7,505 nucleotides of DNA from a virus (Duplodnaviria > Heunggongvirae > Uroviricota > Caudoviricetes): IMG/VR virus record IMGVR_UViG_2706794493_000022. One strand, 5' to 3'. Shown piece by piece: positions 1,547-7,351 of the stretch (positions within the stretch are counted from its first letter, which is position 1; each line of letters begins with the position of its first letter). The position numbers and the translations under genes were made by a program. Below the pieces are notes generated by a model. It saw nothing but the letters and a program-made list of their open reading frames with translations, was not told the origin of the DNA and ran no database searches.

Positions 1547-2638
1547 TCACCCCCTGAATCCCGGCGGAATTTCGGTATCCGGTTCAGAAATATGATTCAC
1601 ACAACGCTGGTTGTTCGTGCCGCTTACCGGGAGCAACCAGGGGTTTTCAAAATTCCGGTCCGGCCCAAAAAACGTCGTCGCTCGCTGAACAAATTCCGTT
1701 CCCGCTTTCCCGGTCGCCGCCAGGTATCTCGCGTAACGCCTCACACCATCCAGCATGGTCTCTGGTGGCACCCCCTCGCGCAATCTGGCCTTCCAGGCAC
1801 TGAAAGCGGATTTCTTCGGGTTTGCCCCAGCACGCAACGGGTATTCCCGCCAGACCTGTTCGAACACATCCGGATAATCCACTCGTCCCACAGACTGCCC
1901 GGTGCTTTCCGGGACTACCCGATCGGCTTCCCGCTGAATGGCGGAATCGGCTTCAGGCTGCTGCAGTTGGTGTGATTGCTCCGACCCTGCGGTCATCACC
2001 TGCTGCACAGCGCCCGAATCGGCTTCCGGTGTCGTGCCTGCTGGCTGACCAGGATTGACGGTCTGAACATCCCCTGCCTGGTTCGTGGTGTTTTTTTTGC
2101 CATGAACCATAGTGTTTTTGTCCTGTTCCTGTTCTTTCTCCTGCTCCTGTTCCTGTTCTTGGCTTCGAAGCCCCTTAAAAGCCCCTTCGAAGCCCCTTAC
2201 CGAATTTCGGCTATTATTCCGCCTCACATCCAGATGGAAATCCGTTTTATATCTGTCGTAAAACACTGACAGAAAAGCGTTTTCAGGTAATGATGCATAC
2301 TCATTCCTGACACCTGCACAACGGTTATCGCCAGGCTTCAACGTTTCCCCAACCTGCCAGGCTGCCATTTCATGGACCCAGACCATCTCTGCATCATGGT
2401 CATAGCTACAAAAACCAGCTTCAACAGCCCTTTTAAGCCCCTTTGAAGCCCCTTCCAGACCAAGCCCGGTTTCATGAGCAAGGTATAAAACTGGCAGGTA
2501 ATACAAACCCAGCATATTTGCGTGAGGGGATGTCATCAGGTAAAAAGCAACAACTTGCGCTTCTGCACCCGCCTTTCTAAGTTCTCTCCCCGTTTCTCCC
2601 AGCCAGAATCGCGGAGAAACTTTTGCGTAATCACGCAT
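1547..2638 (-). CDS. Phage replication initiation protein (O-like replisome organiser) with Q/E-rich linker
   Basis: Long ORF immediately upstream of and coupled to the DnaC-like gene. Preferred start is ATG at 2638 (MRDYAKVSPRFWLG..., SD GAGGT 4 nt upstream) giving 363 aa; the ORF track's 2749 ATG has no SD. Contains a QEQEQEQEKEQEQ linker and internal direct DNA repeats. Family assignment is by gene context and architecture, not by a search. Confidence 0.75.
   Translation of the reverse strand: MRDYAKVSPRFWLGETGRELRKAGAEAQVVAFYLMTSPHANMLGLYYLPVLYLAHETGLGLEGASKGLKRAVEAGFCSYDHDAEMVWVHEMAAWQVGETLKPGDNRCAGVRNEYASLPENAFLSVFYDRYKTDFHLDVRRNNSRNSVRGFEGAFKGLRSQEQEQEQEKEQEQDKNTMVHGKKNTTNQAGDVQTVNPGQPAGTTPEADSGAVQQVMTAGSEQSHQLQQPEADSAIQREADRVVPESTGQSVGRVDYPDVFEQVWREYPLRAGANPKKSAFSAWKARLREGVPPETMLDGVRRYARYLAATGKAGTEFVQRATTFFGPDRNFENPWLLPVSGTNNQRCVNHISEPDTEIPPGFRG
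2121..2158. repeat. Imperfect hexanucleotide tandem repeat (TCCTGT-like units) encoding the Q/E-rich linker of the replication protein
   Basis: Seen directly: tcctgt tcctgt tctttc tcctgc tcctgt tcctgt; reverse complement encodes QEQEQEQEKEQEQ in frame. Confidence 0.8.
2167..2199. repeat. Three direct 11-bp repeats (consensus GAAGCCCCTT + 1), iteron-like, inside the replication gene
   Basis: gaagcccctta / aaagccccttc / gaagcccctta at 2167, 2178 and 2189, an exact 11-bp phase; flanked by the CTTCGAAG palindrome. Confidence 0.45.
2423..2455. repeat. Second cluster of three 11-bp direct repeats (AAGCCCCTT-like), iteron-like
   Basis: aacagcccttt / taagccccttt / gaagccccttc at 2423, 2434 and 2445, same 11-bp phase and core as the 2167-2199 cluster, about 256 bp away. 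Confidence 0.4.
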
Positions 2639-3378: not shown

Positions 3379-3804
3379 TTAATGCACAGCCAGAGTGTTT
3401 CCTGCCGGGCCACCACGATTCATCTGATCGAACAGAACGATCGCTGATGCAACGAAATCATCAATATCTTTCACCAGCCGTTCCTTCGTCTCTACCAACT
3501 CCCGAAAATAAGCGGAACTGTGGCTGCGCATTCGGGCCACCAGCGGAGGCGGCATCGCTTTTTCGATCGCTGGTAACAACGCCTGAATTTTTTTAACCGC
3601 ATCAGGAGTGTCTTTCTCCACCCAGCGGAAAATTTTCTGAGTATTGCGAGCCATGGCTTCCGGATGGCTGTCGTCATACAGTTCCGGGAACGTCATTCCC
3701 AGCTCGAAATACGCTTTGGTAATTTTCGCAGCCGGTACTTTTTCGCCGTCCGGATGCGCCCAGGCATTCATCGCCATGCGGATGTGTTCATGCTTGATTT
3801 TCAT
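3379..3804 (-). CDS. ydaT: YdaT-like protein (CII-analogue regulator)
   Basis: 141-aa ORF starting MKIKHEHI and ending ...VH, immediately downstream of and overlapping the Cro-like gene by 17 nt; SD GGAG 7 nt upstream of ATG 3804. Symbol given from recalled similarity to Rac/CP-933P YdaT, not from a search. Confidence 0.75.
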   Translation of the reverse strand: MKIKHEHIRMAMNAWAHPDGEKVPAAKITKAYFELGMTFPELYDDSHPEAMARNTQKIFRWVEKDTPDAVKKIQALLPAIEKAMPPPLVARMRSHSSAYFRELVETKERLVKDIDDFVASAIVLFDQMNRGGPAGNTLAVH

Positions 3805-4060
3805 GAATCAACTCCGGCGCATTTGATGTGTTAACCTTACATCCAACAGGTAAACCGTCGGTTGGGTTAGGATAAATATCTGGGCGGATTTCATGCGGGG
3901 TAACTTCCCACTTCATTAGTTGGCATAACGGAATTACCTGCTTTGGGGGAACGCCAAAGCTAAACCATTGCCAAACAGTCTGTTGAGCGACCCCCATATA
4001 ACGACCTATTTCAGCCTGAGTGTATTTCTGCCTAATTTTTTCGCGAGTGCTATCTAGCAT
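3788..4060 (-). CDS. ydaS: Cro-like HTH DNA-binding protein (YdaS-like), first gene of the minus-strand early operon
   Basis: 90-aa ORF with helix-turn-helix segment QAEIGRYMGVAQQTVWQW; strong SD GAGGAGGG 5-6 nt upstream of ATG 4060; divergent from the repressor gene. Confidence 0.85.
   Translation of the reverse strand: MLDSTREKIRQKYTQAEIGRYMGVAQQTVWQWFSFGVPPKQVIPLCQLMKWEVTPHEIRPDIYPNPTDGLPVGCKVNTSNAPELIHENQA
3794..3811. promoter_or_regulatory. Perfect inverted repeat TTGATT-N6-AATCAA spanning the ydaT-like start codon
   Basis: Seen directly: ttgatt ttcatg aatcaa. A 6+6 palindrome of this kind is expected about once by chance in 7.5 kb, so weak on its own. Confidence 0.3.
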
Positions 4061-4093
4061 TTTGCCCTCCTCTAAAAACTATAAGCAAAGCCT

Positions 4094-4132
4094 ACAATAA
4101 AAAACTGTATGCAATCAACAGTTTTTTATTGT
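4094..4132. promoter_or_regulatory. Operator-like inverted repeat (15-bp arms, 9-bp spacer) in the divergent promoter region
   Basis: ACAATAAAAAACTGT atgcaatca ACAGTTTTTTATTGT, perfect arms, 34-72 nt upstream of the Cro-like start and 37-75 nt upstream of the repressor start. Confidence 0.65.
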
Positions 4133-4156
4133 GATGCTTTTAACAGTATTTACCTG

Positions 4157-4162
4157 TAAAAT
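4157..4162 (+). promoter_or_regulatory. Candidate -10 (TAAAAT) for a leaderless repressor transcript
   Basis: TAAAAT ends 6 nt before ATG 4169, which has no SD; resembles the leaderless cI message from lambda PRM. No good -35. Confidence 0.3.
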
Positions 4163-4168
4163 TGAATA

Positions 4169-4570
4169 ATGATGAGCGCCCTAGAAGTATCTATGTACAG
4201 AATCAGCAAGCTTCTTCAGGAAACTGGATGGAGCCAGGCTGAGCTTGCCCGTAGAATTGGTGTGACACAACAAACTGTTCAACAATGGGTCAGCGGTAAG
4301 GCTACACCTAAAGCCTCAAGTTTGGATAAACTGGTTGAGGTTTCAGGGCATCCATTGCATTGGTTTTTATTGCCTCCTGAAGAGTGTGAGCAAATTTTCA
4401 CCCCTGACACGATGAAAATTGGTCCTCGCCAACGCGAACTGCTCCAAGCTTTTAGTGCGTTTCCTGAGGAAGACCAAGAAAAAATGCTTCAAGAAATCAA
4501 AGACAAGAAAAAATCAATGGAAGAAACCATTGCTAGGTGGCTGGCGGCACAAAAAAGCCGCCGGGCGTGA
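4169..4570 (+). CDS. paaR: Prophage repressor / TA regulator, XRE-family HTH (DicA/PaaR-like)
   Basis: 133-aa ORF with N-terminal HTH (SQAELARRIGVTQQTVQQW) and C-terminal ELLQAFSAFPEEDQ segment resembling DicA; divergent from the Cro-like gene; directly upstream of the antitoxin/toxin pair. True start may be the internal ATG at 4193; no SD at either. Confidence 0.75.
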   Translation: MMSALEVSMYRISKLLQETGWSQAELARRIGVTQQTVQQWVSGKATPKASSLDKLVEVSGHPLHWFLLPPEECEQIFTPDTMKIGPRQRELLQAFSAFPEEDQEKMLQEIKDKKKSMEETIARWLAAQKSRRA

Positions 4571-4597
4571 CCACAGTACAAGAAGAGGAGTTATGCC

Positions 4598-4789
4598 ATG
4601 GGTACAGCCCTTTCTCCGATAGTTTCAGAATTCGAAACTACCGAACAAGAAAACAGTTACAACGAATGGTTGCGCACTAAAGTAACGTCAAGCCTTGCAG
4701 ACACTCGCCCCGCAATTCCACATGACGAGGTAATGGCTGAAATGGAAAATCTTATTGCTCAAATTGCTGTAACTAACAAGAGCGAGTAA
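4598..4789 (+). CDS. paaA: Small antitoxin of a three-gene ParE-type TA module (PaaA-like, 63 aa)
   Basis: 63-aa acidic ORF; SD GAGGAG 7 nt upstream of ATG 4598; stop overlaps the ParE start (TAATG). The 63-aa size matches PaaA2 of E. coli O157:H7 as recalled. Confidence 0.7.
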   Translation: MGTALSPIVSEFETTEQENSYNEWLRTKVTSSLADTRPAIPHDEVMAEMENLIAQIAVTNKSE

Positions 4790-5076
4790 TGTTACCCATT
4801 TTATGGCTACCGTCTGCTCGCGATGATTTGCGCCAGATCATAACTTACATCGCCAAGGAGAACCCACCGGCAGCACGTAGACTAAAAATACGCATTGAAA
4901 CATCGGTATTACCTCTATCTGAGCATCCGTACTTATATCCACCAAGCGAACGGGTTTCTGGATTGAGAGAGATCGTGACCCACCCTAACTACATAATCCT
5001 GTACAGAGTAGCTGCTTCAAGCATTGAGATTGTAAGCGTGACACATTCTCGGCGACAATTTCCCTTCTCTATCTGA
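4789..5076 (+). CDS. parE: ParE/RelE-superfamily toxin (ParE-like, 95 aa)
   Basis: Typical ParE pattern (W...A..DL..I..YIA..NP.AA ... GLREI ... YIILYRV ... IEIVSVTHSRR); translationally coupled to the antitoxin by a 1-nt overlap. Confidence 0.85.
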   Translation: MLPILWLPSARDDLRQIITYIAKENPPAARRLKIRIETSVLPLSEHPYLYPPSERVSGLREIVTHPNYIILYRVAASSIEIVSVTHSRRQFPFSI

Positions 5077-5094
5077 GTTGAACAATTTTCATAC

Positions 5095-5117
5095 TCCCTC
5101 TTTCGAGGGATTTTTTT
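5095..5117 (+). terminator. Intrinsic terminator after the ParE gene
   Basis: Hairpin tccctc-tttc-gaggga (6-bp stem, 4-nt loop) followed by T7 (5111-5117), 19 nt after the ParE stop. Confidence 0.6.
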
Positions 5118-5127
5118 GCCCAAAACA

Positions 5128-5167
5128 ACAATTAAAAACTGTTGACACAAAAACAGTTTTTAATTGT
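5128..5167. promoter_or_regulatory. Second operator-like inverted repeat (16-bp arms, 8-bp spacer), near-identical half-site to 4094-4132
   Basis: ACAATTAAAAACTGTT gacacaaa AACAGTTTTTAATTGT; half-site matches the first operator at 14 of 15 positions; overlaps the candidate promoter. Confidence 0.65.
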
Positions 5168-5172
5168 AGATT
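5142..5172 (+). promoter_or_regulatory. Candidate sigma70 promoter of the dicB-type operon (-35 TTGACA, -10 TAGATT, 19-bp spacer)
   Basis: Perfect TTGACA at 5142-5147 inside the operator; TAGATT at 5167-5172. The spacer is longer than optimal, so the -10 choice is uncertain. Confidence 0.4.
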
Positions 5173-5353
5173 ACATACACCAACCACCCACCCCGCCCCA
5201 CAGAACGCCGGGCAATACTTCGAGTTACCAAGCAGTGGTCAGGGGGTAAGTAGCCAGCCCGAGGCGTATGAACATGACGGCAGGGTTCAACTTTAATAAC
5301 TATGCAGCAGGTTTTTGTTCCGCTACCCGGCGTTAAGGGGAAATGAGGTCAAC

Positions 5354-5509
5354 ATGGATACTATCGATCTTGGCAACAACGAATCTCTGGTGTACGGCGT
5401 GTTTCCCAACCAGGACGGTACATTCACCGCGATGACGTATACCAAAAGCAAAACGTTTAAAACCGAAAATGGTGCCCGTCGCTGGCTGGAAAGAAACTCA
5501 GGTGAGTGA
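5354..5509 (+). CDS. ydfA: Small YdfA/YdaF-like protein (DUF1391-type, 51 aa)
   Basis: ATG at 5354 with SD GAGGT 4 nt upstream (the ORF track's 5315 start is TTG with no SD); 51-aa product MDTIDLGNNESLVYG...; first gene after the promoter, as in the Qin dicB operon. Confidence 0.7.
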   Translation: MDTIDLGNNESLVYGVFPNQDGTFTAMTYTKSKTFKTENGARRWLERNSGE

Positions 5510-5510
5510 T

Positions 5511-5639
5511 ATGGATTTCGACACAATCATGGAAAAGGCTTACGAAGAATACTTCGAAGGCCTTGCCGAAGGCGAGGAAGCTCTCAGCTTCAGTGAGTTT
5601 AAACAGGCGCTTTCCAGTTCGGCAAAATCTAACGACTAA
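5511..5639 (+). CDS. ydfB: Small acidic YdfB/YdaG-like protein (42 aa)
   Basis: Not in the ORF track (under 60 aa); found by reading: ATG 5511 one nt after the upstream stop, SD AGGTGA 5 nt upstream; MDFDTIMEKAYEEYFEGLAEGEEALSFSEFKQALSSSAKSND. Confidence 0.65.
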   Translation: MDFDTIMEKAYEEYFEGLAEGEEALSFSEFKQALSSSAKSND

Positions 5640-6226: not shown

Positions 6227-6412
6227 TTAATCTCGGGCGGCGTTTAACTCTTTATTCAGTAAATCAGACTGATACTGATTTGGCTTTGTAATGATACTGT
6301 CAAGTTTTGATATATGAAATTCAACATGTTCTGGACAGTTAAAAATGTAATAACCGCCCTTCTCTAAAAAGCCAGAAAGAGCGTTACAGGCAGGGCATGG
6401 TTTGTTTGGCAT
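6227..6412 (-). CDS. Small zinc-ribbon-like protein (61 aa; CPAC...CPEH), antisense to the dicB-type operon
   Basis: ATG at 6412 preceded by SD GGAGGA 4-5 nt upstream (a second in-frame ATG at 6424 lacks one; the ORF track's 6484 start is GTG). Product MPNKPCPACNALSGFLEKGGYYIFNCPEHVEF... has a C-x2-C ... C-x2-H arrangement. Confidence 0.5.
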   Translation of the reverse strand: MPNKPCPACNALSGFLEKGGYYIFNCPEHVEFHISKLDSIITKPNQYQSDLLNKELNAARD

Positions 6413-6747: not shown

Positions 6748-6805
6748 TTTCTGGTGACGTTTGGCGGTATCAGTTTTACTCCGTGACTGCTCTGCCGCCC
6801 TTTTT
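6748..6805 (+). ncRNA. dicF: DicF small RNA (ftsZ-targeting, Hfq-dependent) with intrinsic terminator
   Basis: tttctggtgacgtttggcggtatcagttttactccgtgactgctctgccgccc followed by TTTTT matches DicF of the Qin prophage as recalled; GGCGG...CCGCC stem plus U-tail; sits between the ydfB-like and dicB genes as in Qin. Confidence 0.85.
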
Positions 6806-6974: not shown

Positions 6975-7163
6975 ATGGAAACGTTATTACCAAACGTTAA
7001 TACGTCTGAAGGTTGTTTTGAAATTGGTGTCACTATCAGTAACCCTGTATTTACTGAAGATGCCATTAACAAGAGAAAACACGAACGGGAGCTATTAAAT
7101 AAAATATGCATTCTTTCAATGCTGGCCCGTTTACGTCCGATACAAAAAGGATGCTGGCAATGA
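6975..7163 (+). CDS. dicB: DicB cell-division inhibitor (62 aa)
   Basis: METLLPNVNTSEGCFEIGVTISNPVFTEDAINKRK...LNKICI.SMLARLR matches recalled DicB; SD GAGGA 7 nt upstream of ATG 6975 (the ORF track's 6870 start is upstream junk). Confidence 0.9.
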   Translation: METLLPNVNTSEGCFEIGVTISNPVFTEDAINKRKHERELLNKICILSMLARLRPIQKGCWQ

Positions 7164-7351
7164 ATACAGCATTTGCACTTGTTCTGACAGTTTTTCTTGT
7201 TTCCGGAGAGCCAGTTGATATTGCAGTCAGTGTTCACAGGACAATGCAGGAGTGTGTGACTGCAGCAACCGAACAGAAAATTCCCGGTAACTGTTACCCT
7301 GTCGATAAAGTTATTCACCAGGATAATAACGAAATCCCGGCAGGTCTTTAA
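7160..7351 (+). CDS. ydfD: YdfD small membrane/lysis protein (63 aa)
   Basis: MNTAFALVLTVFLVSGEPVDIAVSVHRTMQEC...IPAGL with N-terminal hydrophobic helix; ATG 7160 overlaps the dicB stop (ATGA); SD AAGGA 8 nt upstream. Confidence 0.85.
   Translation: MNTAFALVLTVFLVSGEPVDIAVSVHRTMQECVTAATEQKIPGNCYPVDKVIHQDNNEIPAGL

Follow-up and report, generated by a model that had tools for sequence, protein, structure and literature searches.

Introduction

The operator of phage 434 is a 14-bp site, ACAA-N6-TTGT, and the contacts between residues of its repressor and the bases of the operator are known from crystal structures. In phage lambda, the operator centers lie 24 and 23 bp apart.

Two prophages hold systems that are among the closest to the locus described here. 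For CP-933P (Sp12) of Escherichia coli O157:H7, the octameric regulator PaaR2 and the Cro-like protein YdaS were found to produce footprints in OR and to repress PR, PRM and PL (Jurenas et al. 2021, PMC8630535), and 5' RACE together with N-terminal sequencing revealed a leaderless paaR2 transcript (PMC8630535). The binding motif of YdaT has been published as TTGATT-N6-AATCAA (PMC9986795). In Qin, a prophage of E. coli K-12, DicA binds Oc and represses dicBp 22-fold; it represses both the divergent dicC promoter and the promoter upstream of ydfA-ydfB-ydfC-dicF-dicB-ydfD (PMC10448788, PMC3441716).

The window studied here, that is, the whole 7,505-nt stretch of Caudoviricetes DNA that was analyzed (IMG/VR record IMGVR_UViG_2706794493_000022), was 98.1% identical to prophage Sp4 of Escherichia coli O157:H7 Sakai. 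An earlier note on this DNA had described two inverted repeats with nearly identical arms, and had taken each arm as a half-site. We consider it highly probable that they form part of a lambda-like prophage immunity region of the kind carried by Sp4/CP-933M in E. coli O157:H7, in which five 15-bp operators, OR1 to OR3 plus OL1 and OL2, serve one repressor.

Results

Gene content of the region

The features of the region are collected in Table 1. The best sequence match of the immunity repressor in the PDB was the 434 repressor (E=3e-5), while its C-terminal 97 aa showed 39% identity to PaaR2; identity to DicA was 28%. Its counterpart in Sp4 is ECs_1069, annotated as 'phage repressor protein'. 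The HTH of the repressor and the Cro-like protein were 54% identical over 28 aa, and beyond the cro-like gene Pfam and PHROGs identified the CII-like YdaT-family gene, a DnaD-like replication initiator and a DnaC-like loader.

The region carries a PaaR-PaaA-ParE module, with a PaaR-type regulator, a PaaA-type antitoxin and a ParE-type toxin in one operon and a terminator after parE. Further on, ydfA, ydfB, DicF, dicB and ydfD lie in one orientation behind the promoter and operators at 5128-5172; the names that these genes had been given were right (Pfam DUF1391, DicB and DUF1482; Rfam, 76.7 bits for DicF). A minus-strand gene (6227-6412) lies between PL and dicF/dicB. By analogy with K-12, we assume that transcription from PL extends to dicF and dicB.

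Table 1. Predicted features of the immunity region and adjacent genes (window coordinates)
Feature	Position	Strand	Remarks
CII-like regulator, YdaT family	3379-3804	-	Pfam YdaT_toxin; phrog_163 'CII-like transcriptional activator'
Cro-like regulator (YdaS family)	3788-4060	-	Pfam YdaS_toxin; phrog_35; helix AQQTVWQW
YdaT-type inverted repeat, TTGATTTTCATGAATCAA	3794-3811		Exact; fits published YdaT motif
Predicted PR -10, TAGGCT (TAnnnT)	4089-4094	-	Read from sequence; layout mirrors PL
OR1, operator ACAATAAAAAACTGT	4094-4108		Fills PR spacer; shares one base with PR -10
Predicted PR -35, TTGATT	4113-4118	-	Read from sequence; 18-bp spacer
OR2, operator ACAGTTTTTTATTGT	4118-4132		Adjoins PR -35; center ~44 bp upstream of repressor start codon
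OR3, weaker operator ACAGTATTTACCTGT	4143-4157		Three mismatches to arm pattern; 1-base overlap with repressor promoter -10
Predicted PRM -10, TAAAAT	4157-4162	+	6 nt before ATG at 4169; from sequence and conservation
Immunity repressor, 133 aa	4169-4570	+	Pfam HTH_3; 434-repressor-like N-terminal HTH, PaaR2/DicA-like C-terminal domain
PaaA-type antitoxin	4598-4789	+	Pfam PaaA2, 5.6e-19; PDB 3zbe (PaaA2), E=1.4e-20
ParE-type toxin	4789-5076	+	Pfam ParE_toxin, 2.9e-17
Terminator-like hairpin and T run (intrinsic)	5095-5119	+	Closes repressor-antitoxin-toxin operon
OL2, operator ACAATTAAAAACTGT	5128-5142		Last base is first T of PL -35
Predicted PL -35, TTGACA	5142-5147	+	Begins on last base of left arm
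OL1, operator ACAGTTTTTAATTGT	5153-5167		Fills PL spacer; last base is first T of PL -10
Predicted PL -10, TAGATT	5167-5172	+	Read from sequence
Untranslated PL leader	5179-5353	+	C-rich 5' end; conserved across heteroimmune alleles
ydfA-like gene	5354-5509	+	Pfam DUF1391; RefSeq annotation ydfA
ydfB-like gene	5511-5639	+	RefSeq annotation ydfB
DicF small RNA	6749-6800	+	Rfam RF00039, 76.7 bits vs gathering score 48
dicB	6975-7163	+	Pfam DicB
ydfD-like gene	7160-7351	+	Pfam DUF1482

Each long palindrome is probably a pair of 15-bp operators

Both inverted repeats were found again in the sequence and by a repeat search of the window. The first (4094-4132), which had been placed correctly in the 108-bp gap between the divergent genes of the Cro-like protein and the HTH repressor, is formed by ACAATAAAAAACTGT, a 9-nt spacer (ATGCAATCA) and ACAGTTTTTTATTGT. 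The second (5128-5167) is formed by ACAATTAAAAACTGT, a 10-nt spacer (TGACACAAAA) and ACAGTTTTTAATTGT, and the reported overlap with TTGACA was also observed. Within each repeat the arms were complementary at all positions (15/15), and between the repeats they were identical at 14 of 15. The 1-bp difference in spacing is present as well, but it results from a lineage-specific extra A within a run of A's at OL; in most relatives the arms of either repeat are 9 nt apart.

The arm pattern, ACAATWAAAAACTGT, gave four exact matches in the window and a fifth with three mismatches (OR3). Only 0.69 matches with up to three mismatches would be expected by chance, and five were not reached in any of 200 shuffles. 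Every 15-nt arm was near-palindromic in itself (ACA-N9-TGT), with dyad symmetry at the conserved ends, and the operator unit can be written as the 15-bp sequence ACA(A/G)(T/G)-N5-(A/C)(C/T)TGT. Since each arm is a complete ACA-N9-TGT operator and not a half-site, each long palindrome is an operator pair, and the two palindromes correspond to OR and OL in a lambda-like prophage related to Sp4/CP-933M. Three operators were counted at OR, between the Cro-like and repressor genes, with center-to-center distances of 24 bp (OR1-OR2) and 25 bp (OR2-OR3), and two at OL, downstream of the toxin gene. Reading OR as a single palindrome proved wrong in a second respect, as a third operator lies over the repressor's own promoter.

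Neither this third 15-mer (4143-4157) nor the internal dyad symmetry of the arms had been noticed before. In the window the arms mirror each other perfectly, including the centers that are not contacted, a symmetry that a model of two independent operators does not require. A literature search with the exact operator strings returned nothing relevant.

Promoters and leader

The three bases that define the predicted PR -10 (T1, A2 and T6; positions 4094, 4093 and 4089) were invariant among the relatives. Similarly, the right-hand bases of the OR1-OR2 spacer, ATCA or GTCA (TTGA on the minus strand), were largely conserved, while the first five varied freely. Positions 4158 to 4162 of the predicted PRM -10 were invariant too, and the 6-nt distance to the ATG was kept in the relatives (7 nt in Arsenophonus). 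No Shine-Dalgarno sequence was present upstream of the repressor ATG. A -10 hexamer only 6 nt before the ATG implies that the repressor mRNA is leaderless, a prediction drawn from this geometry. The PL spacer measured 19 bp in the window; among the relatives it was mostly 18 bp long, and loci L093 and L100 had 17 bp.

None of PR, PL and PRM was called by a sigma-70 consensus promoter scan of the window; given this result, the imperfect hexamers and the 19-bp PL spacer, the promoter positions rest on conservation and analogy. As for the PL leader, an Rfam search with a permissive threshold, covering the leader and the PL region, yielded only chance microRNA and Xist matches far below the gathering scores. 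The 175-nt leader folded no better than shuffled sequences (z=+0.7), and thus gave no evidence for a structured antiterminator RNA.

Conservation of the operators in related loci

The loci of relatives were gathered through the repressor protein and not through a DNA motif. Forty-five loci with repressors of 68 to 100% identity, all with the helix TQQTVQQW, were obtained; a locus from Arsenophonus (48% identity) brought the set to 46. A scan of a genome collection with the repressor returned this Arsenophonus locus only, because the collection holds one genome per species. Conservation at OR was counted in a MAFFT alignment of the 22 distinct OR sequences from the 45 loci.

The ACA/TGT ends of the three OR 15-mers were completely conserved in these loci (0 of 18 columns variable), compared with 49 variable columns out of 63 in the intergenic sequence outside the operators (Fisher p=1e-9), and 10 of the 15 columns of the operator centers varied. 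At OL, a pair of ACA-N9-TGT sites was found in all 46 loci; TGACA directly follows the left operator in every one of them, and AGATT abuts the right operator in 44, the exceptions being AGTTT in L088 and TAAAT in Arsenophonus (L100). The same kind of operator appears at both places, the divergent region and the promoter upstream of ydfA, in 46/46 loci, with the OL pair 540 to 1343 bp from OR1 and with or without toxin-antitoxin genes between them. An ACA-N9-TGT site at the OR3 position was found in every relative with the same recognition helix. The long palindrome, for its part, decays in some relatives (OL of L091 and of L100), and the 15-mers remain.

These data bear on the view that each 39- to 40-bp palindrome is one operator, bound by one repressor dimer with a 15-nt arm as each half-site, which we regard as unlikely. 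It would account for the perfection of both palindromes in the window (15/15), mirrored even in the central A/T tracts, and for the symmetry still seen between OR1 and OR2 in L092 and L093 (13 to 14 of 15). However, the arm centers lie 24 to 25 bp apart, which exceeds the reach of the HTH pair in a single small dimer and equals the OR1-OR2 spacing of lambda; each arm has dyad symmetry of its own at the conserved ends; and the third 15-mer, at 4143-4157, is conserved without being paired. Furthermore, the spacer between the arms ranges from 8 to 10 nt across loci, and in L091 the OL arms are mirror-symmetric at only 9 of 15 positions, both being still ACA-N9-TGT.

The recognition helix and the operator change together

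With whole 15-bp operators as the unit, the sites can be compared with the protein predicted to read them. In a phmmer alignment to 2r63/1per, the recognition helix of the repressor, TQQTVQQW, pairs with TQQSIEQL of 434, and the residues aligned with Gln28, Gln29 and Gln33 of 434 are all Gln. The operators, both here and in all relatives, have the 15-bp form ACA(A/G)-N7-(C/T)TGT, and the 14-bp form of 434 was not encountered; given this difference in length, the 434 contact model serves as an analogy only.

Relatives with a different helix, AQQSVQKW (L096 to L099), carried ACAC-type operators at the same positions. Across seven heteroimmune prophage alleles, which differ in repressor and in operator type, each had a private motif common to its OR and its ydfA-upstream promoter: the best OR-to-OL match of 15-mers reached 13 to 14 of 15 within an allele and 11 to 12, with a single 13, between alleles. 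The region offers a compact natural example of a recognition helix and an operator changing together. Tentatively, these repressors may represent a natural series of 434-like DNA-binding domains that read an operator of 15 bp instead of 14. In such a series, a single replacement of Gln by Lys at the position aligned with Gln33 of 434 (TQQTVQQW to AQQSVQKW in L096 to L099) would accompany the shift from A/G to C at operator position 4, and so create a new immunity type although the proteins are otherwise 66% identical. Independently of this, and equally tentatively, the extra A of the O157 lineage, which lengthens the PL spacer to 19 bp, may have weakened expression of the toxic dicB/dicF operon while the prophage was being domesticated.

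The helix of the Cro-like protein, AQQTVWQW, differs from that of the repressor at two positions, which might mean that one HTH protein alone, such as the repressor, uses the sites and that the Cro-like protein recognizes something else. This seems quite improbable, as every relative examined has a Cro-like protein whose helix opens with the same Gln pair, the repeat search found no second repeated motif in the 108-bp intergenic region, and in CP-933P the footprints of the two proteins overlap and either protein represses PR, PRM and PL (PMC8630535).

Partial repression of the paaR promoter by the PaaA-ParE complex (Hallez et al. 2010, cited in the review PMC4803016) raises the question of whether the sites are autoregulatory operators of that complex and not of the HTH repressor. 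We find this very improbable: the same operators occupy the same positions in loci without PaaA/ParE genes (L093, which has other cargo, and Arsenophonus L050/L100) or with a degraded module (L089/L090), they co-vary with the recognition helix of the repressor, and the ydfA-dicB promoter is not a place where one would expect an operator for a toxin-antitoxin complex.

The least credible explanation, that the palindromes are nucleic-acid hairpins (a terminator, a cruciform or an RNA element) and not protein-binding sites, could draw on the flagging of minus-strand 5167-5128 by a terminator scan and on single-strand folding far better than shuffled (z=-7.1 and -6.2), but it was rejected because the hairpin potential is not conserved (at OL of L091 it is lost, z=+1.2, with no compensatory changes and invariant 15-mer ends) and a proper, separate G+C-rich terminator already exists at 5095-5110; in addition, the stems are almost pure A/T (3/16 pairs G-C) and the hairpin would lie upstream of the PL transcription start.

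Proposed mechanism

Returning to the operator clusters for one repressor, from the sites, their conservation pattern, their co-variation with the repressor type and the gene content we infer binding, cooperativity, PRM activation and looping as follows. Dimers of the 133-aa repressor would bind each operator through the 434-like recognition helix, and neighboring dimers would bind cooperatively. Occupation of OR1 and OR2 would block PR, and with it the Cro-like, YdaT/CII-like and replication genes; likewise, occupation of OL1 and OL2 would block PL and the expression of ydfA, ydfB, DicF, dicB and ydfD. From OR2 the repressor could activate the weak, leaderless PRM, and OR3 is placed so that a high repressor concentration would shut PRM off. 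The Cro-like protein, with its closely similar helix, most probably binds the same operators and would flip the switch. The repressor has its C-terminal domain in common with PaaR2, an octamer in solution, so that OR and OL, at a distance of 1034 bp, could plausibly be joined in a loop around the repressor-antitoxin-toxin operon.

Very probably, then, the phage early genes and the cell-division-inhibitor operon are kept silent by one and the same repressor. Such control of the early and ydfA-dicB promoters had been proposed in the earlier note; comparison with the 46 loci, the seven alleles, CP-933P and Qin argues strongly for the function, whereas the anatomy has to be redrawn as above.

Discussion

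The layout of the region is well known; only the operator variant of Sp4/CP-933M is new, and no new kind of regulation is involved. What is gained is an operator map for Sp4/CP-933M of E. coli O157:H7, with five 15-bp sites, three promoters and a repressor mRNA predicted to be leaderless.

As in lambda, the repressor and cro genes diverge from a tripartite OR whose operator centers are 24 to 25 bp apart, and of these operators one lies inside PR, another beside the weak promoter of the repressor gene and the third over it. The likeness extends to the repressor mRNA, predicted to be leaderless, to a further operator cluster that covers PL at a distance of about 1 kb, and to the accessory genes that occupy the place of rexAB between repressor and OL. 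On the other hand, the operators are of 15 bp instead of 17, OL has two sites instead of three, the 133-aa repressor lacks a LexA-like self-cleavage domain (Pfam found HTH families only), the counterpart of CII is a YdaT-family protein, and PL drives ydfA-dicF-dicB and not gene N.

Phage 434 provides the best sequence match among solved structures, with the three aligned Gln residues kept, operator ends of the ACA(A/G) type around an A/T-rich, sequence-tolerant center, and a recognition-helix start common to repressor and Cro. In contrast to 434, the operator is 1 bp longer (15 bp), and the C-terminal domain of the repressor is unrelated to that of 434 CI.

Qin resembles the region in its short, non-cleavable repressor DicA, homologous in the C-terminal part (28% identity), and in the gene content downstream of PL. 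The fit with DicA repression that had been suggested holds for the wiring predicted here, which is the same (PMC10448788, PMC3441716), but not for the operator sequence, which is unrelated to Oc and to the PaaR2 operators. Oc is the 20-bp sequence TTGTTAGTCATAACTAACAA (PMC3441716), and OR and OL of K-12 carry TGTTAGTCAT-type sites, to which the window gave background matches only (11 to 12 of 15). Qin also differs in having no toxin-antitoxin genes and in missing most of the conserved PL leader.

CP-933P shares the gene order YdaT, YdaS, repressor, PaaA, ParE and PL, a homologous repressor C-terminal domain and a homologous PaaA, the leaderless-type geometry from -10 to ATG, and PR and PL elements that mirror each other. 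(A literature search for PaaR1 returned only papers on type VI secretion.) The difference lies in DNA recognition. PaaR2 starts with MQKKE and has no HTH similarity to the repressor of the window, the N-terminal DNA-binding domains being different, and its GTTTAGTAA-type 18-bp repeats (PMC8630535) are unrelated to the ACA-N9-TGT 15-mers; the PaaR2 specificity for GTTTAGTAA-type repeats was not found in the window. With unrelated operators and unrelated DNA-binding domains, a prophage of the type seen in the window and CP-933P would be heteroimmune, and the operator map thus explains how Sp4 and Sp12 (CP-933P) coexist as heteroimmune prophages despite the common C-terminal domain of their regulators.

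Inverted repeats and the conserved unit

Both inverted repeats of the immunity region were perfect (see the table), and the description of them in an earlier note on this DNA was confirmed as written: arms 14/15 identical between the two repeats, centre spacers of 9 nt (4094-4132 repeat) and 10 nt (5128-5167 repeat), and a TTGACA at 5142-5147. The arm pattern occurred in the window as four exact copies plus one with three mismatches (4143-4157), which the note had overlooked and which lies 25 bp beyond, without a partner. At three-mismatch stringency 0.69 would be expected by chance, and five copies were obtained in 0 of 200 shuffles. Taken singly, each 15-nt arm comes close to dyad symmetry (ACAnT-N5-AnTGT), and this self-complementary pattern was present in the four arms and at one other place in the 7.5 kb (0.17 expected). 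The distance between arm centres is 24 bp at OR, the cluster between the Cro-like and repressor genes, and 25 bp at OL, the second cluster.

To ask which unit is conserved, relatives were gathered via the repressor protein, not the DNA motif. All 45 viral-contig loci, whose repressors are 68 to 100% identical and share the recognition helix TQQTVQQW, showed three ACA-N9-TGT 15-mers, whose distances from the start codon did not vary. In a MAFFT alignment of 22 distinct intergenic sequences, none of the 18 columns of the ACA and TGT ends was variable, versus 10/15 in the operator centres and 49/63 outside the operators (Fisher P = 1e-9). A downstream ACA-N9-TGT pair, 8 to 10 nt apart, was found in 46/46 loci, including that of Arsenophonus triatominarum (48% protein identity). 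TGACA adjoins the left downstream site in 46/46 loci, and AGATT the right one in 44/46, the exceptions being AGTTT in locus L088 and TAAAT in the Arsenophonus locus (L100). The long palindrome was not conserved. In locus L091, with a repressor 91% identical, mirror symmetry between the OL sites is down to 9/15 and no hairpin potential is left (z = +1.2, versus -6 to -7 in the window), and in Arsenophonus the right OL site is ACAATTATTTATTGT. Since the ends of the 15-mer are invariant and the long palindrome is not conserved, the unit is the 15-mer; each "palindrome" is an operator pair, and OR has three operators. The half-site anatomy proposed before, with two 39-bp operators, is therefore corrected to five 15-bp operators.

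In two relatives (L089 and L090), degradation of the PaaA/ParE module leaves just 683 bp between OR and OL, so the switch can be retained after loss of the toxin-antitoxin pair. L011 and L013 are one 48-kb viral contig. One end of it is 845 bp from OR and the opposite end ∼190 bp from OL, which fits a phage genome, either complete or circularly permuted, opened within the immunity region.

Features of the window and of four related loci
Feature	Coordinates	Strand	Remarks
DnaC-like loader	794-1540	minus	
Replication initiator	1547-2749	minus	
YdaT-family CII-like regulator	3379-3804	minus	
YdaS-family Cro-like regulator	3788-4060	minus	
PR -10 TAGGCT	4094-4089	minus	predicted; mirror of PL
PR -35 TTGATT	4118-4113	minus	predicted; mirror of PL
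Inverted repeat 1	4094-4108, 4118-4132		perfect; arm ACAATAAAAAACTGT, spacer ATGCAATCA, arm ACAGTTTTTTATTGT
PRM -10 TAAAAT	4157-4162	plus	predicted; 6 nt before ATG at 4169
HTH repressor	4169-4570	plus	
PaaA-type antitoxin	4598-4789	plus	
ParE-type toxin	4789-5076	plus	
Terminator-like hairpin and T run	5095-5119	plus	3' of ParE-type toxin gene, before second palindrome
Inverted repeat 2	5128-5142, 5153-5167		perfect; arm ACAATTAAAAACTGT, spacer TGACACAAAA, arm ACAGTTTTTAATTGT
PL -35 TTGACA	5142-5147	plus	predicted
PL -10 TAGATT	5167-5172	plus	predicted
Leader, 175 nt	5179-5353		untranslated; between PL and ydfA, 3' of second palindrome
ydfA	5354-5509	plus	
ydfB	5511-5639	plus	
DicF RNA	6749-6800	plus	
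dicB	6975-7163	plus	
ydfD-like gene	7160-7351	plus	
Operator regions, L096-L099	1417-1480, about 2520-2570		viral-contig coordinates

Predicted promoters

A promoter consensus scan of the window called none of PL (upstream of ydfA-dicF-dicB-ydfD), PR (Cro-like gene) and PRM (repressor gene). OL1 (5153-5167) occupies the spacer of the putative PL, and OL2 (5128-5142) adjoins its -35 box. One extra A extends the PL spacer to 19 bp in the window, against 18 bp in most Escherichia coli relatives and 17 bp in more distant ones. This A, within an A run (5143-5152), gives the 10-nt inter-operator spacer at OL and is limited to a window-like subset of relatives; most have 9-nt inter-operator and 18-bp promoter spacers. 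The right OL arm of Sakai prophage Sp4 also reads ACAGTTTTTTATTGT.

In the -10 box of PR, T1, A2 and T6 are invariant in relatives. The spacing from the PRM -10 box to the ATG is likewise conserved (7 nt in Arsenophonus), and no Shine-Dalgarno sequence precedes the repressor ATG at 4169. CP-933P shares this geometry with the predicted PRM, and leaderless translation of PaaR2 is proven there (PMC8630535). The centre of OR2 (4118-4132) lies ∼44 bp upstream of the PRM start and OR3 (4143-4157) overlaps its -10 box, the same arrangement as in lambda.

Candidate ligands

Among solved structures, the repressor N-terminal domain best matched the phage 434 repressor (E = 3e-5), and the residues aligned with Gln28, Gln29 and Gln33 of the latter are all Gln. 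In the 434 crystal structures these residues contact positions 1 to 4 of the ACAA-N6-TTGT operators. Across the HTH, the Cro-like protein (helix AQQTVWQW) and the repressor share 54% identity, and the Gln-Gln pair is kept in the Cro-like proteins of relatives. Four relatives carrying the PaaA/ParE module (L096-L099), with repressors 66% identical overall and the helix AQQSVQKW, have ACAC-type (ACACTTTTAAAGT-type) operators at exactly the same OR and OL positions; this looks like a natural specificity switch. Among seven heteroimmune prophages sharing the flanking ydaT and ydfA, including the CP-933P type, a LexA-family type and K-12 Qin, the best match between OR and ydfA-upstream 15-mers was always within the same allele (13 to 14/15, compared with 11 to 12 and one 13 between alleles).

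An antitoxin-toxin complex was ruled out as the primary operator ligand, since loci in which the toxin-antitoxin genes are missing or have been replaced still carry the operators.

Gene surroundings

Pfam, PHROG and Rfam supported the gene order. E. coli strain 472 is 100% identical over 3700-5500, and the immunity region of Sp4 of O157:H7 Sakai (ECs_1059 to ECs_1075), in whose annotation the repressor gene is labelled "phage repressor protein," is 98.1% identical to the whole window. The counterpart of Sp4 in EDL933 is prophage CP-933M.

The leader, C-rich and G-poor at its 5' end (ACCAACCACCCACCCCGCCCC), is kept across the heteroimmune prophages and partly in Arsenophonus, and mostly deleted in K-12 Qin. 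It had no Rfam match, and its predicted folding did not exceed that of shuffled sequence; it may serve as a site for Rho loading. Antisense within the ydfA-to-dicB unit, between DicF and a 129-aa ORF replacing ydfC, lies a 61-aa gene of unknown function (6227-6412, minus; phrog_10133; Cys-rich start MPNKPCPACN...).

An exact inverted repeat, TTGATTTTCATGAATCAA (3794-3811), spans the ydaT-like start codon and the 3' end of the Cro-like gene. It has the form of the binding motif of the CII-like YdaT of CP-933P, TTGATT-N6-AATCAA (PMC9986795), so a PRE-type promoter may exist here as well. Within the replication-initiator gene, AAGCCCCTT occurs in five exact copies (0.07 expected by chance): three follow an 11-bp period, and a further two lie 267 bp off (2168-2198 and 2435-2454). 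They probably represent origin iterons like those of the lambda O gene.

Proposed mechanism and comparison with known systems

The functional part of the earlier proposal, that one repressor serves both the lytic promoter and the dicB-type operon, is supported by comparative evidence (46 loci, seven alleles) and by precedent in CP-933P and Qin, with five 15-mers as operators in place of two palindromes. Repressor dimers on OR1 (4094-4108)/OR2 and OL1/OL2 would occlude PR and PL, respectively; repressor at OR2 could activate PRM, and repressor at OR3 could autorepress it. The Cro-like protein would be a competitor at these sites. Over its C-terminal 97 aa the repressor shows 39% identity to PaaR2, a protein that forms octamers in solution (PMC8630535). 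This likeness makes looping plausible between OR and OL, which are 1034 bp apart. A Pfam domain search found no LexA-type cleavage domain in the repressor; induction, if it occurs, would depend on an antirepressor or on the switch flipping spontaneously, as has been described for DicA (PMC10448788).

The architecture is the same as that of lambda. Footprints on OR have been obtained with PaaR2 and YdaS of CP-933P, and each of these proteins represses PR, PRM and PL there (PMC8630535); in Qin a lambda-type architecture has been demonstrated for DicA, DicC and dicBp (PMC3441716, PMC10448788). Both differ from the window allele in DNA-binding domain and operator sequence, and window-type operators were not found in the literature searched. 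With its own DNA-binding domain and operators, the window allele is, as judged from sequence, heteroimmune to CP-933P and Qin, and it adds a predicted member to the architecture known from lambda, CP-933P and Qin.
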